The notes beneath the pieces are model-generated. The model saw only the letters and a program-made list of their open reading frames with translations. It made no database searches and was not told the origin of the DNA. DNA of 63,709 bases, the filler included, from Rhabdomonas costata (lineage: Eukaryota): the NCBI GenBank assembly GCA_019059605.1. It is 52 parts of 52 records of this genome, joined end to end, with 100 filler letters (N's around TTAATTAATTAA, not from the genome) between each part and the next. Parts side by side here need not be neighbours in the genome. Positions count along the whole stretch, not along the records: positions 28,232 to 29,358 come from JAHMHO010027249.1; 51 more parts are not named here. One strand, written 5' to 3'. Position 1 is the stretch's first letter. Each line of letters starts with the position of its first letter. The position numbers were made by a program, and so were the translations under genes. This document shows, in pieces, positions 26,888 through 56,800 of this stretch.

Positions 26888-28238
26888 CTGCACCCCACCA
26901 CCCCNNNNNNNNNNNNNNNNNNNNNNNNNNNNNNNNNNNNNNNNNNNNTTAATTAATTAANNNNNNNNNNNNNNNNNNNNNNNNNNNNNNNNNNNNNNNN
27001 NNNNTGTTGTTGTGTTCAGCGCTCTACAGCGCTTGCATTTCCAACTCTCACCTGCTACGCACGTTTTCTCTTGTCAAATGTCAAATTCTTAGATGGTCTT
27101 ATGTGTATTTTCGGCAGTTTTACAGCGTCAACGCTTATGCTCACAACTTGAGAATAATTGTTAAACTCAGAGTCAGATTCAGAGTTAGTTTTTTCATATT
27201 TCATGTGCATTTTTTAAACGCATGCTCTTATGATTCTGTTCTGCTGCCGTTTTCACCTTCAGCGCTTCTGCTCCCAAATGGAAAATCATCTAAGCGCTCT
27301 CACAGTATCTGCAGCAGCTCAGATCTGTGGTGTTCAGCAAGTGCAATAGTTGTTTTCTACAGATTCTACAAATATTCCACACGGAGAGGCCTGTCATTCT
27401 GTTCACTCAATAAAAACGTATAACATAATGCCAGTATCAATTGCTGCCACTGCACTACTGTATTAATAATAAAGCAATAGGAGAGGTGCAACGTGGTACG
27501 CTGCAAAACCAAAAGTTACAAAACAATGCTATTAATTGTTGATACATTCTGCTTAAATTCCTTTCACAAAATGTTGTCTCCGACTTCACCACAACAAAAC
27601 TGAAACTTAAAAAACACAAAAGTTATATCCAAAGGTGTTGTGCAACAAACAAACAGTACAATGATTAGCGAAAAGATGGGAAGGTGAAACAAGAATATTT
27701 GTTTCATTTTGGAAGCGTAAAGTGAAGCACTGCAGATAATGACACTGAGCTGGATACACAAAGTAACATCATTTTTAACATGAGAAAAGCAAATGGGACA
27801 AAAATTGAAATGAAATAGCAGGAGAGCAAGTGGGAGACACACAACGATATGGGATGCTGGAACAGAGCTAAAGAGACTGGTAAGCATAGGTCGGAAGGAT
27901 GATATGGGAGGGTGAGAGTGTGGAAGTGCGTGTCAGTGGCGCTTCGGAGATGTGGTTCAAATATAGTGCGGACATAAAACGTGTGCGGAGCAATAGGAGT
28001 GGAAGCACAAACGTACAACAGTGCCTTCATCAATGTACTCTGGGGATGGGGATGGTCTGGAAGTGAGGTCGGACTTACAGCTCCAGATCTGCCAAAACAA
28101 CAGTGTTGGTAAGTTGCCGCCACACCCCACCNNNNNNNNNNNNNNNNNNNNNNNNNNNNNNNNNNNNNNNNNNNNTTAATTAATTAANNNNNNNNNNNNN
28201 NNNNNNNNNNNNNNNNNNNNNNNNNNNNNNNGGGTGGG

Positions 28239-28295
28239 GTGAACGTGATGGATGGCGCCTCGTCCAATCTCTTAGTGGTTATCAACGACATTCTG
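28239..28295 (+). CDS. HisKA second-helix exon fragment, inverted relative to the rest of the kinase
   Basis: VNVMDGASSNLLVVINDIL|gtctcc matches the S..LL.LINDILD motif. Confidence 0.75.
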
Positions 28296-28376
28296 GTCTC
28301 CCACCTCCACCCCCATCTCTTCACTTTCATTTTTGAGCGGTCTCCGAATAGAAATGAAAGAGAGAGAGAGACAAAC

Positions 28377-29358
28377 CTGTGGAATGGAGCAGCTCAATCA
28401 TCCCAATGATCCCGTTCAGCGGAGTCCGGATCTGCACGGCATGCACACAAATCGGCCCAGCAACCGTCTTTTGCAGTTAAATTTCATACTTGAGATCCTG
28501 CGGAGATTGCTGAAAGATGTACGGAATGGGCCACTATTCTTTTCTTCTCTCGTTTGATTCAAAGCAAGAAGGGCAAAAACACTGCGGAACAGTGCTGTTG
28601 CAGTAGGGTTCACTGTCAACAACTAATTCCCGTATTAAAGCTTTGTCTTGTGCTGCCGCATGAATTGCGCCATCATCGTACACGTTCACCCGACCCCTAT
28701 GCTTGCAATGTTGTTCTGGTTCGGACGCGAGCGAAAGCCCTATCAGAGTGGAAACCTTGTCAGCATATTTAGCGACTGAAGGGGGGTCCAAAAACTTGCC
28801 CCCACACCCGCCCCCACTACAAAACCTCATGAGACATCCAGGCCATAACATCTGACCGTTGCTTCAGCGCCTCCTCCGCGGTTCGGTGAGCAAGGGCGAG
28901 GTCCTGCAGGTCCACAGGCACACGTGTAACACACCTAGAGGATCTGCCGCTCAATTGCTCAATGTAATTTCGTCCGATTCTCTCATTTAGTTAGGGAAGA
29001 AAGCAAAACGAGAAAAAAACACTCCAACCAACCACTCGTGCAGGGTAGTGCTGTACTTGCGCCAAAATGGAGCTCCTCGTTTCCGCCATGCTCGCTCGGA
29101 GACTGTCATCACGTGAACATGATGAGAGTCACATTAAGCAAAGCTCAACTCTCACAAGGAGACCCAACGAGCCGCACACCCACATACCGCGTTCATCCGA
29201 ATAAGGTCATTGAAGAGAAAGGTGTACGGCTCGGTCAGTGTCGCCCGCACAAGGGTTTTGTAGATGAGGTAGAAGGACATCACCTTCAGGCTGTGACCCA
29301 AAATGACCTGCCAGGACACCAGGCTCTCGTACAGCGTCAGCACGAACTCCACCACAAA
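28377..29358 (-). CDS. Sensor histidine kinase with MASE3-like membrane domain and HisKA H-box, exons 29358-29188, 28903-28826 and 28431-28377
   Basis: Spliced product EFVLTLYESLVSWQVILGHSLKVMSFYLIYKTLVRATLTEPYTFLFNDLIRMNA|DLALAHRTAEEALKQRSDVMAWMSHE|IRTPLNGIIGMIELLHST. All junctions are GT-AG and in phase. Confidence 0.88.
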
Positions 29359-30070
29359 NNNNNNNNNNNNNNNNNNNNNNNNNNNNNNNNNNNNNNNNNN
29401 NNTTAATTAATTAANNNNNNNNNNNNNNNNNNNNNNNNNNNNNNNNNNNNNNNNNNNNTGGTGGTGGTAAAGGCTGGCTTTGGCGGGGTGGTGGATTGCT
29501 GTCCTGTCTGCTTTCTCGTTGTTGTATCTGTACAGTGTAAATATATTGAAGTGGAATTGTGGCTTCATGTGGACCTCTGCCAAGCCACGTGTGTGTCCAC
29601 ACGGGGCCCCCTCTGGCCGTCACCTTTTGCTTGCGCTCGGAGAATGGGTTCACCTGGGGGCGATGACCAGCAAAAATCCGCTTCTGCTGAGCATTATGAT
29701 GAAATTCGGTGTCCCGTAGGGCTGCAAACCGTAGAACTGGCGCTGTTATTTATTTAGTGTGGGCTGTGGCTTGCAAATTTCCCGCGCTGCGCAGGTTCTT
29801 CTGATACGAAATAAGATAAAATATCGTGCCCATTTTTGAGCGAGATGGTTTTATTTGTTGATAAAAGCGGTGACCTTAAGAGTCTGGAAAGGGGGTAGAA
29901 AGAACCATCGCGGGTTGACATCCCTTTTGTGCGAGCATGCCCTTTGATGATATTGATGATGTTTTTAAGGCGGAGGAAACCGTTCATCACGCCAGAACCA
30001 ATATGGCTCTGAAACAGCTTTGTTTTTTTCGGTTGTTTTACTCGCTTGTGGGATGTTTCGGCGCGTGGAG

Positions 30071-30263
30071 ATTAACCCAGCCGAGGTGCTGGAGTTATGG
30101 AAGAAGATCTATCGCCGCGACAGCTACAGCGGAGAGGATGATCCCGAGTGGACGCCCCCGAGCTACAAGCTGCGCATGATTGGGGAGATGCTCAGCGACC
30201 AGCAGAAGGAGAAGCTCCTCATTCCGTTTGAGACTTGGATGACTCTTCCGGCCGACAGGCGGG
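30071..30263 (+). CDS. Probable exon, unknown protein
   Basis: Coding-like composition INPAEVLELWKKIYRRDSYSGEDDPEWTPPSYKLRMIGEMLSDQQKEKLLIPFETW ending at a GTGAG donor. Confidence 0.45.
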
Positions 30264-31405
30264 GTGAGCCTTTACTTCTCGTCAGTTGATCAGTTAGTCA
30301 ATTGACAGTCCTCGTAAGGGAGGCAGTTCCAGTGTCTTGGTTATGCGCTTTTTCTGAGTTATTTTTATCGCTGCGCCTGGCACTATGCTTTCTACACAGC
30401 AGTTACTTTTGAGAGAGAATTCTGGTGTTCAACCTGAATTCATCTCTTTTACGCCCGCTCCAGCAGCGCCGCGCTCCACCCTTAAACGAAACTGTTACAA
30501 TCATCCCCCAAAGCCAGCAATAATAATATGGTTCCTAACCCAGCGGAGGGTTAACTGGTCTTGAACACCCCAACCNNNNNNNNNNNNNNNNNNNNNNNNN
30601 NNNNNNNNNNNNNNNNNNNTTAATTAATTAANNNNNNNNNNNNNNNNNNNNNNNNNNNNNNNNNNNNNNNNNNNNGTTTTTTGGGTTGCTTTCGGTGGTT
30701 TCTCACATGCCTTGTTTTGGCCCGCACAGAAGGATCGAGGCGCAGGAGCAGATCATCCAGAAGCAGGCTGAGATCCAGTCCAAGCTGACGGAGCAGCTTC
30801 TTCACCTGCAGAAAGTGCGACACCACCTCTGGGCGTTTTCTTTCTACGGGGAGATCCCCCGGTCATGATTTTTCCAATGAGGCTCGTAGCTGTCGAATTC
30901 ACTTCGTATTTGTTGTTCAAGCAGCTGATGCTGTTGCTTGTTGTATGATCAGCTCCCGCTGAGATGCGAACCAAAACAAGGGGAACATCCTGTGTGAAGA
31001 CAAAGCAGGCTTGGTTTGTGTCCGTCCTTGACTAGTCCGAAGATAAGTATAAGAAATACGAAAGTATGTGACAAACTGTGTGTTTGGCTAACGATGCCGA
31101 AAGCGCGGAGCGTTTCCGAATATGTTGCTGTGCGGTTCAATTGCGTGTTCCCACAACTCATTGACGTTTCTCTGCCCGCGGCGACAACCAAATGACAGCT
31201 ATTTGACCTTAAAATTCACGGCTATCCCGCGGAAAGTGGTACGAAAGACCCCAGAACAACATGATCGGCTCTTCTTCGGGTGTAAACAGACCTTTTGTGT
31301 TCATGGAGGCCGGGTTTTGCAGATTTAACCTTTTCGGAGAGGTCTGTTTTTGATCCGATTCTCCGTTTTTATCCCCTGGGTCCGTTAGCCAAAAAAAATG
31401 CAAGT

Positions 31406-53855: not shown

Positions 53856-53885
53856 TAACCCTAACCCTAACCCTAACCCTAACCC
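53856..53885 (-). repeat. Telomere-type (TTAGGG)5 repeat
   Basis: (TAACCC)x5 on the + strand at the contig end. Confidence 0.85.
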
Positions 53886-56800
53886 CAACCCCCNNNNNNN
53901 NNNNNNNNNNNNNNNNNNNNNNNNNNNNNNNNNNNNNTTAATTAATTAANNNNNNNNNNNNNNNNNNNNNNNNNNNNNNNNNNNNNNNNNNNNTGTTGGA
54001 ATGCGGGCAAGGGGGCTAGTGAAGAGCAGAAAGTGGGGGCGGGGGATAGGGAGTCCTCAGGCACGAAGGGCACAGAATCAGTAAGATCTCGGGTGCTTGA
54101 AAGATGCTTGTCCGTGAGAGGACGGGTTCTCCTTTGCCATGACTCTTTTGAAATTTGCGCGCCTCCGTCGCACACCGCCCCGCCCTCCCATCTGCCTCCC
54201 TGAAAACCTCGATGGACCACTTCCTTTGTGTTCAAATGCAAACTGCTCTGAATTACCAAAATCCAACCACCCCCCGCCCAAGCCCGAGATGCCATCACTG
54301 ACACGCGCACATCCCCCCGCGGTACACGTGCAAGCCGTTGTTCTGTTCGTACAGCCTTTTTTTCAGCATTGCCTTTCCTTTCTTTCCCGAACCAAAGTCC
54401 AAAAACTCTGACCCCAAAAGGGATGCCTGTCTGGAACCTTGGGCTGACCGTGGTTTTTGTAACCCTGCTGGTGGCCAGAGTGGATGCCAACCTTCGAGGT
54501 CCATCGCTCCCCACCACCACCACCACCACCACCTTGAGGTGGTTTCGCTTTCCTTCTCTTCCACTCGTAGAAGAAACAAAGCAAGACAAAATTTGTAAAG
54601 GCGGCATAAGTAGAGTGCAATAATAATAATAATAAAAACTGAGGGCACAACGGGAACCTGAAGTCAAGCAATCCTTCCTCTTTTACTTCCCAAAACCGAC
54701 CTCAACCCATACCGAAAAAAGGCCTCCTCACTGTAGGCCACTGTCACGTCACCACCACTCACCTCTCAGCCTGCAATGCAGAAGACGGTGGTGTGCAGTG
54801 CCGTTGGTACTGGCGGTCTACAAAGTCCCAATGGGATAACGGAGAAGACCGCGATAGTGGGCCCCCCACTCTCTGAATGGAGTAGGTAGCGCTCCTGCAT
54901 TCACGTCACTGTTCTGTGAATTCCGGCTCCGCTGCAAAAGTGAGTGTTTCTGGGTCCCGGTCAGCAGCATGAGACAACAAATAGATATCGAACACGCACA
55001 CTTCCGGATCTGCAGGAATGCAAGCGATTTGTGATGTCCTCTTTCTTCCTGACAGTTGCAACCATCGCAACCTGCAAAGAACAGGAGGTGAATATACAGT
55101 TGCCCACTCCCCCCCACAACNNNNNNNNNNNNNNNNNNNNNNNNNNNNNNNNNNNNNNNNNNNNTTAATTAATTAANNNNNNNNNNNNNNNNNNNNNNNN
55201 NNNNNNNNNNNNNNNNNNNNCAGAGCGACTGGAAATGGATTGAGGCACGGGAAATTTACAAGAGAACAATATCAAGAGCCGTCAATTGTTGAGTAAATCG
55301 AAAACAAATGAACCTTCGTATTCTGTCGGAAAAAATGGAATTTTCAGGGCAAATGTATATATCTAAAACAGTGGGGTATACGAACGAGCTCTGGTGGTGC
55401 TAACATGGACGCTAATGGTTTGCGCTCTTCCTTTTTGATGAACTTTTTTATGGGGCGCAAAACTACTCACAAGCGCCCCTCTTCAAAACAAAAAGGTAAT
55501 GATGCCTGAAAAGGAGTTCAATCACGGCCCCGGGAGCCCCGGTGGGTTGGCGGTCCCTGGCGGATTGCTCCCTCCCGTGCTGCCTGGTACTGGTCACCGT
55601 CGCCATGTGGGCCCTCTCCCGTCGCGTCATCAACCGCCTTACCCACGCCCTCCACGGCAACACCCGCGGTGTACACCACCACGCGCGGCGGGCACGCCAA
55701 TCCAAGGCGGCCACCCTCTCGCTGCCCACTCCCGGGACCCGGGGGTCCACCCCCCAGCCCTCCACCGCGCAACAGAGTGCCATCCTCGCTGGACGCCCCT
55801 CATCTCGGCGACGCTTCAGGCGGCTGGCTTCTCCCTCGCTGCTTCCTGCTTCCCAACGGAAGCCTTGGTGCACCTCACCCAGCGCCGGCTCTCCGCTTCT
55901 CCTTCTTCTGCTGTGCTGAGGGCGGTTGCGGCCACGCATGAAGTCTGCGACGATTGGCTGTGCCAGTCACCCACGCGCTGGGGCCCGGCCCCCGGCCGCT
56001 TCTGGCATAAGGCCGCCACTTATGCTTGGGGCGACCGATCGGCCGATAGCCGGGCGCACATCTGCGCCCCCTGATTGCGCTGCCTGCCCATGCGTCTGTG
56101 CTTTGTGCCGTTTTGGGAATTGAACACCTTCGGAGATGTTTTATTGTGTGGTCTGTGAATTTTGGAGTTCGACCTTATTCGCTGCGCTTGTCTCCTTATA
56201 TGTTTTTGGTGTTACTTCTGCTCTAGCCCCAGGGTTCCAATAAAGCATAAGTTTGAGCAATGCTGCAGTATAAGTACTTGCTGCGCCCCTCCCACAAGCA
56301 AACGAGATCCCCACAACTGGAGCTATATATCTATCAGGCACGTATGTNNNNNNNNNNNNNNNNNNNNNNNNNNNNNNNNNNNNNNNNNNNNTTAATTAAT
56401 TAANNNNNNNNNNNNNNNNNNNNNNNNNNNNNNNNNNNNNNNNNNNNCTGGAGCTGGGTGGCAACCCGTGGGCCTGCCGGCTGACCCTTCCTCCATGGGT
56501 GAAGACCCCCTGCAACGGTGTGCTTTTTTGTGGCCTGTTTTTTTTTTTCGCTTTTCTCTTTTGAATGCCGTTTTCCTCCATCCCTTTAATTAAGTTTGAG
56601 AATAATCCTTTTATGGTGTTCATCGGTGTTTGTATTCAACTGTTTTCGGCTTTTGCTGAGGTTATTGATCTCGCTAAGTGTTTTCAGACCTTTTTTATGG
56701 TGGAGGGGGTCTGGACACAGCCGCTTGCGAAGGGTCGTTCCGCAATGGGACGTGCTCTGCGAGCTGCGGCACGGGGTTCTACATTGCCACGTTTATCATC

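Follow-up and report, generated by a model that had tools for sequence, protein, structure and literature searches.

Whether a membrane sensor histidine kinase of a recognizably prokaryotic kind can be a gene of a eukaryote, split by introns, rather than bacterial DNA caught in an assembly, is the question raised by a single contig of Rhabdomonas costata, found at 28232-29358 of the DNA analysed here. The window, that is, the whole stretch of 63,709 nt, consists of 52 unrelated contigs of 1117-1129 nt each, which seem to be ordered by length and are connected through N linkers around TTAATTAATTAA; whatever is read across such a linker carries no genomic context. The kinase reported in the first-pass annotation was present in this setting, but the stretches that neighbour it are unrelated contigs, and only 28232-29358 is context for it. 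The features of this contig are the following.

28232-28241, plus strand: primer-like tag of 10 nt composed only of G and T, recognized by the composition of the contig start
28242-28295, plus strand: exon D' (HisKA helix 2, NVMDGASSNLLVVINDIL), its 5' part cut by the contig end and followed by GT at 28296
28296-28376, no strand: spacer of 81 nt between exon C (minus) and exon D' (plus), with a GT donor read from either side
28377-28431, minus strand: exon C, 18 codons and 1 base, acceptor GTGCAG/ATC, donor ACAG/GTTTGT, phase-1 end
28432-28825, minus strand: intron 2, 394 nt, GT...AG, phase 0, GC 0.49
28826-28903, minus strand: exon B, 26 codons, acceptor CTGCAG/GAC, donor GAG/GTTTTG
28904-29187, minus strand: intron 1, 284 nt, GT...AG, phase 0, GC 0.50
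29188-29358, minus strand: exon A, phase-0 end, donor GCG/GTATGT, cut by the contig end
29349-29358, within exon A (residues FVV): 10 nt composed only of C and A on the plus strand, recognized by the composition of the contig end

The three in-phase GT-AG exons that had been proposed for this locus were all recovered on the minus strand, each where it had been placed. Exon A encodes the end of the penultimate membrane helix, the whole of the last membrane helix with its TEPYTFLF motif and the start of a linker helix; exon B continues the linker helix and carries the first half of the H-box, ending in AWMSHE; and exon C encodes IRTPLNGIIGMIELLHST(G), which supplies the rest of the H-box and completes DHp helix 1. 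Intron 2 is located directly after the His-Glu codons (SHE/IRTPLNG), and the H-box, previously described as intact and interrupted at precisely this point, does read MSHE, intron 2, IRTPLNG, presenting the conserved His and the E-[ILV]-R-T-P pattern. A composition count revealed a GC3 of 0.76 in the exons versus a GC of 0.49-0.50 in the introns. No kinase similarity was detected in introns 1 and 2 by tblastn with seven relatives, and the introns had no match in the remainder of the 63,709-nt stretch. Moreover, exons A-C and D' are free of stops and frameshifts, and all their conserved motifs are retained. Exons and introns alike are real, with a signal far beyond chance. The coding sequence on the minus strand of the contig is limited to 101 codons, and the HATPase_c domain, the receiver and MASE3 positions 1-183 lie off the contig.

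A 109-codon open frame was also observed on the minus strand at 28534-28863, covering most of intron 2 in a region with a GC of 0.49. It includes the string GRVNVYDDGA, which resembles GGVNVMDGA at the start of the inverted exon, and tblastn revealed no kinase similarity in this frame beyond that string. In the two contigs that follow in the window, open coding stretches halt before a GT, one at 30060-30267 (plus strand, PADRR/GTGAGC) and the other at 30722-30817 (plus strand, HLQK/GTGCGA), which suggests that GT-AG introns are usual in this genome.

Domain searches located both halves of the proposed architecture. The Pfam MASE3 family (PF17159) recognized exon A alone with 37.3 bits (cut-off 31, E 2.8e-9), over profile positions 184-226 of 226, that is, the last 43, the contig ending at position 184. 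The membrane motif had been read as the C-terminus of MASE3, and the lack of a MASE3 HMM match had been named among the results that would overturn this reading; exon A by itself passed the Pfam cut-off, and the assignment therefore stood. The Pfam HisKA family (PF00512) matched profile positions 12-31 in the unspliced read-through frame that contains exon C, scoring 22.3 bits, below the cut-off of 26.9. Exon B, alone or within the long frame that holds it, and the plus-strand frame holding D' were assigned to no Pfam family. A HisKA profile of our own was then applied: it was built from 133 fetched kinases, leaving out the nearest relative (P0001, described below), and was run on the 2402 frames of the whole stretch. 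Exon C ranked first (positions 16-36, E 1.1e-6), D' third (positions 43-61, with an E of its own of only 0.22) and exon B fourth (positions 3-16). The spliced A+B+C peptide scored 43.9 bits against this profile, and the addition of D' contributed 11 bits, raising the score to 54.9. In the kinase alignment A2, the H-box column was occupied by His in 52 of the 57 rows, and the gene of the window keeps this His. 

Elsewhere in the window, a HisKA-like stretch on the minus strand at 56549-56635 (IQTPMNTIKG, E 0.019 with our own profile), beginning at the same profile position at which exon C starts, has no AG acceptor upstream and was taken as a chance match. No HATPase_c or receiver pieces were found elsewhere in the whole stretch by tblastn with the seven relatives, and Rfam gave 0 matches over its 63,709 nt.

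The splice model was confronted with relatives of exon A. An HMMER search with exon A over 1.84 billion representatives retrieved 222 proteins at E ≤0.001. The best match was P0001, a transcript-derived protein of 672 residues whose source name is eukprot:RCo017388 (69% identity, E 3.6e-17), and the second was P0002, of 79 residues (50% identity). The matches below P0002 were MASE3 proteins with at most 57% identity, and the six of them that were scanned (P0003-P0008) were prokaryote-type. The RCo0 prefix, with 26 occurrences in the available text of PMC8219788, designates Rhabdomonas costata proteins. Tblastn of P0001 against the whole stretch returned exon A with an E of 7e-20, while P0001 residues 222-248 returned exon B with an E of 1e-4. 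When exons A, B and C were joined by their coordinates in a script, the resulting 101-residue peptide aligned with P0001 (residues 168-265) at 60% identity across 98 residues without any gap (E 6.7e-36); the removal of the two introns (284 and 394 nt) thus restored a conserved frame that is gapless relative to P0001. The same peptide aligned with the bacterial-type MASE3-HisKA kinases P0013, P0008, P0068 and P0026 at 44-46% identity with a single gap of 7 residues.

P0001 also indicated what the remainder of such a protein may look like. It matched MASE3 with 123.3 bits over profile positions 58-226, with an insertion, HisKA with 32 bits and HATPase_c with 73 bits in Pfam, and the receiver family with only 15.2 bits, under the cut-off of 30.2. 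The gene of the window resembles it in the MASE3 end, the identical linker length, the HisKA domain and the gapless alignment, whereas it differs in holding, within the window, 101 codons only, P0001 having 672 residues that include HATPase_c and a weak receiver. The two also differ in the H-box, which reads SHEIRTP in the window and SNEIRAP in P0001, where residue 246, an Asn, occupies the phospho-acceptor column that is filled by His in 52 of the 57 aligned kinases. The presence of Asn in one and His in the other implies that these are different genes of one family, and P0001 may, judging from its sequence, be a pseudo-kinase paralogue. P0002 carries the motifs of the lineage, and its similarity ends exactly at the intron-1 site: it continues with V, which GTN encodes, and reaches a stop after 10 codons. 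Such an ending fits translation running into an intron that another genome would have at this position.

These findings, namely the Pfam MASE3 match, the intact H-box, the GT-AG introns and the gapless alignment with P0001, agree with the earlier proposal of a eukaryotic kinase with introns and the end of a MASE3 sensor. The gene probably encodes a membrane-embedded sensor histidine kinase of MASE3-HisKA type, intron-bearing and eukaryotic, and there is good reason to regard the locus as part of a eukaryotic nuclear gene, to which a protein of the euglenid Rhabdomonas costata is the nearest relative. It adds a eukaryotic member to a known prokaryotic kind, the MASE3 sensor kinases, with a close relative in the euglenid protein set.

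The gene model proposed at first stood for exons A-C but had missed the next HisKA exon, which lies inverted on the same contig. Tblastn with P0001 residues 275-293 led to the plus strand at 28239-28295 (translation VNVMDGASSNLLVVINDIL), which includes exon D', and a two-helix HisKA hairpin with helix 2 colinear is consequently not what the contig presents, the helix-2 piece being on the opposite strand. The spacer between exon C and D' contains a 12-nt inverted repeat (28321-28332 and 28352-28363) and is where a chimera or inversion would most likely have been joined. In addition, a stretch of 27-30 nt at the left end of the contig (28232-28258) has a similar counterpart inside intron 2, on the minus strand at 28696-28667; this local alignment scored 32, and 300 shuffles averaged 18.2 and never exceeded 29.

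The ends of the contigs bear on how this inversion arose. A start of at least 8 bases composed only of G and T was found in 30 of the 52 contigs (0 of 52 for the control of opposite composition), and an end of at least 8 bases composed only of C and A in 32 of them (control, 2 of 52). The length of these runs was most often exactly 10, and the kinase contig has 10 at one end and 10 at the other. Degenerate G/T primers are a property of whole-genome amplification kits, and the tags look like remnants of such primers. If they are primer remnants, the outermost 10 nt at either end of the contig are not to be trusted as genomic. The exon A of the original model is present, but its first 10 nt (29349-29358, encoding FVV) are probably primer-derived. 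In another contig of the window, the end at 53870-53893 consists of ACCCTAACCCTAA followed by a run of C and A only, with two CCCTAA telomere-type units beside the primer-like tag.

Inverted chimeras are a known product of whole-genome amplification, and the inverted position of D' probably reflects a contig that is a chimeric amplification product rather than a native arrangement. This reading is favoured over a rearrangement in the genome because of the primer-like tags at the contig ends and the four intact coding pieces. The principal alternative is that the inversion of HisKA helix 2 is real and that the locus is a rearranged non-functional copy, a pseudogene from which no kinase can be made, since an inversion, if real, would leave the gene broken. 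Several observations are in line with a pseudogene: D' lies on the plus strand with a GT donor of its own, the 12-nt inverted repeat stands between it and exon C, and the recurrence of the 27-30-nt left-end stretch in intron 2 hints at a local duplication. Moreover, a word-index homologue search in both length classes revealed no carrier of exon A's own sequence among 5.8 billion proteins, so that the gene's own product was not found there, and P0001 has lost the phospho-acceptor His, which shows a family tolerant of decay or of a change of function. On the other hand, the freedom of exons A-C and D' from stops and frameshifts, the conservation of all motifs, the GC3 of 0.76 and the amplification-primer-like tags at the contig ends all argue against decay, and a pseudogene is considered unlikely, though it deserves to be kept in mind. 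That the inverted exon is native, in a gene still expressed through scrambled or trans-spliced exons, is highly improbable, as only the intactness of D', its GT donor and its fit to the next profile positions agree with it, whereas nothing in the results indicates scrambled exons or exons used in antisense and only conventional GT/AG introns are reported for the six Rhabdomonas costata genes studied in the available text of PMC8219788.

The chimeric-amplification reading leaves the eukaryotic assignment of exons A-C to be weighed against bacterial contamination, according to which the contig would carry a bacterial MASE3 kinase gene and its introns would be artefacts of chimeric assembly. Such a view draws on the bacterial share of 80-95% in the MASE3-bearing ESM Atlas clusters, on the named relatives of the P0001 kinase core, which are all bacterial, and on the single continuous frame of the prokaryote-collection relatives that were examined (L001 and L003). 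Nevertheless, the frame is interrupted twice at exact GT...AG boundaries, both in phase 0, and the removal of these interruptions gives the gapless alignment, just as the first-pass annotation had argued when it took the introns to speak against bacterial contamination. The intervening 284 and 394 nt are of lower GC and have no kinase similarity, and the best identity to a prokaryote was 57% over 49 residues versus 69% to the EukProt protein P0001. In addition, the two motifs of the lineage, KVM[SA]FY and T[ER]P[YF]T..FN, were scanned for in 241 million metagenome records and in 185,579 species genomes, which yielded only 2 loci and 1 locus, respectively, with 47% identity. A gene split by spliceosomal introns belongs to a eukaryote, and contamination has therefore very little probability.

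The metagenome locus L001 is one continuous frame of prokaryote type with MASE3 and PAS. The species-genome locus L003, from a MAG labelled Actinomycetota, encodes in a continuous frame a MASE3-PAS-GAF-HisKA_3 protein of 1084 residues; it was considered as a closer relative and set aside, its 47% identity being no nearer than that of other matches. Among known systems, the gene is most readily compared with the bacterial and archaeal MASE3-HisKA-HATPase_c kinases (P0008, P0005, P0006 and P0068), with which it has in common the order of MASE3, direct helical linker and HisKA, as well as the motifs GH.LK..SFYL.Y, PY..LF and SHE.RTP.N, at the 44-46% identity of the spliced peptide given above. 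Unlike them, it has spliceosomal introns, and its KVM[SA]FY and T[ER]P[YF]T..FN motifs are nearly absent from the prokaryote collections.

An origin by transfer from bacteria or other prokaryotes is plausible, given the bacterial predominance in the MASE3 clusters and the exclusively bacterial named relatives of the P0001 core. A tree of 151 rows and 54 columns, computed with a quick method, paired the window sequence with P0001 (SH-aLRT 92), within an otherwise poorly resolved group of 11 rows that includes P0002; 2 of the 148 inner branches were well supported. The phylogeny that had been suggested as a check thus supported the pairing with P0001 but, with 54 columns, resolved neither the direction of a prokaryotic transfer nor its donor.

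The way in which the MASE3 end is joined to the H-box suggests how such a kinase would work. Among the 150 relatives listed, 9 have the H-box at most 60 residues from the MASE3 end, at distances of 21, 28 (five times), 35, 42 and 44, and 8 of these 9 distances were counted as multiples of 7. The linker measures 35 residues both in the gene of the window and in P0001, one heptad more than the 28 residues of the commonest bacterial class. An AlphaFold2 model based on a 57-row alignment (mean pLDDT 80.8, pTM 0.59), which represents P0001, with Asn in the place of His, and not the window protein, places the last membrane helix at 180-206; the chain then turns briefly at the TEPYT motif and forms an unbroken helix at 214-263 that runs through H-box position 246, and a second helix at 269-299. 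From this model we infer that a rigid helix, which would keep its register, may connect the MASE3 bundle with the DHp helix. Whatever signal the multi-helix membrane domain senses would travel down a single helix, predicted to span five heptads, one above the commonest bacterial relatives, to reach the DHp dimerisation helix, and would set the autophosphorylation of the His. In hybrid kinases, ATP-dependent autophosphorylation of His is followed by transfer to the receiver, then to an HPt protein and finally to a response regulator. By analogy with P0001, HATPase_c and a receiver-like domain would lie downstream in the window protein and would feed a His-Asp phosphorelay. The stepping of linker lengths by heptads offers a simple, testable rule for the coupling of membrane sensors to kinases.

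Eukaryotic kinases with bacterial-type sensors of a related name have been reported in other lineages. Kabbara et al. (PMC6324907) described MASE1 histidine kinases from early land plants and from viral inserts of Ectocarpus, which resemble the present gene as eukaryotic histidine kinases with a bacterial-type membrane-embedded MASE sensor of uncharacterised ligand, and differ from it in the sensor family, here MASE3, and in the lineage. In the available text of that survey no MASE3 kinase is named, all 3 places with "MASE" referring to MASE1, and 0 kinases are given for the two kinetoplastids, Leishmania infantum and Trypanosoma brucei, that alone represent Euglenozoa in it. Among euglenids, an expression study of Euglena gracilis listed "possible prokaryotic sensor histidine kinases" among its regulated transcripts, which were not analysed in the available part of that article (PMC6776534); these are similar to the present gene as bacterial-looking sensor kinases of a euglenid, a comparison by description only. 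In the accessible text of the E. gracilis genome paper, the term histidine kinase appears only within the name of the HAMP domain (PMC6366073). In its main text, as far as available, PMC8219788, an article on the heterotrophic euglenid Rhabdomonas costata, never refers to histidine kinases or to two-component systems; it describes conventional introns with GT/AG boundaries in the six genes studied and treats prokaryote-branching proteins of this species as possible contamination or transfers.

The literature searched, outside subscription journals and supplements, contained no description of eukaryotic MASE3 kinases; its mentions of MASE3 were few, none on the domain itself and never alongside "eukaryot". 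The early description of a little-described signalling system, which many well-described eukaryotic orthologues would have contradicted, is in agreement with this result, as that literature offered no account of any eukaryotic MASE3 kinase.

When kinases of bacterial appearance turn up in a protist transcriptome, contamination is the usual suspicion, and an intron-bearing genomic copy settles this question for the present family. The MASE3 sensor is thereby extended into eukaryotes, and the locus suggests two-component signalling in a lineage of Euglenozoa not sampled in the available text of the PMC6324907 survey. Tentatively, and with somewhat less than even confidence, the euglenid-related lineage may possess a small family of intron-bearing membrane MASE3 sensor kinases, taken from bacteria long ago, with a canonical member in the window, a His-less paralogue (RCo017388), a lineage-specific extra heptad and an intron site in common with P0002. 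If true, no two-component membrane sensor family would have been described for Euglenozoa before this one.
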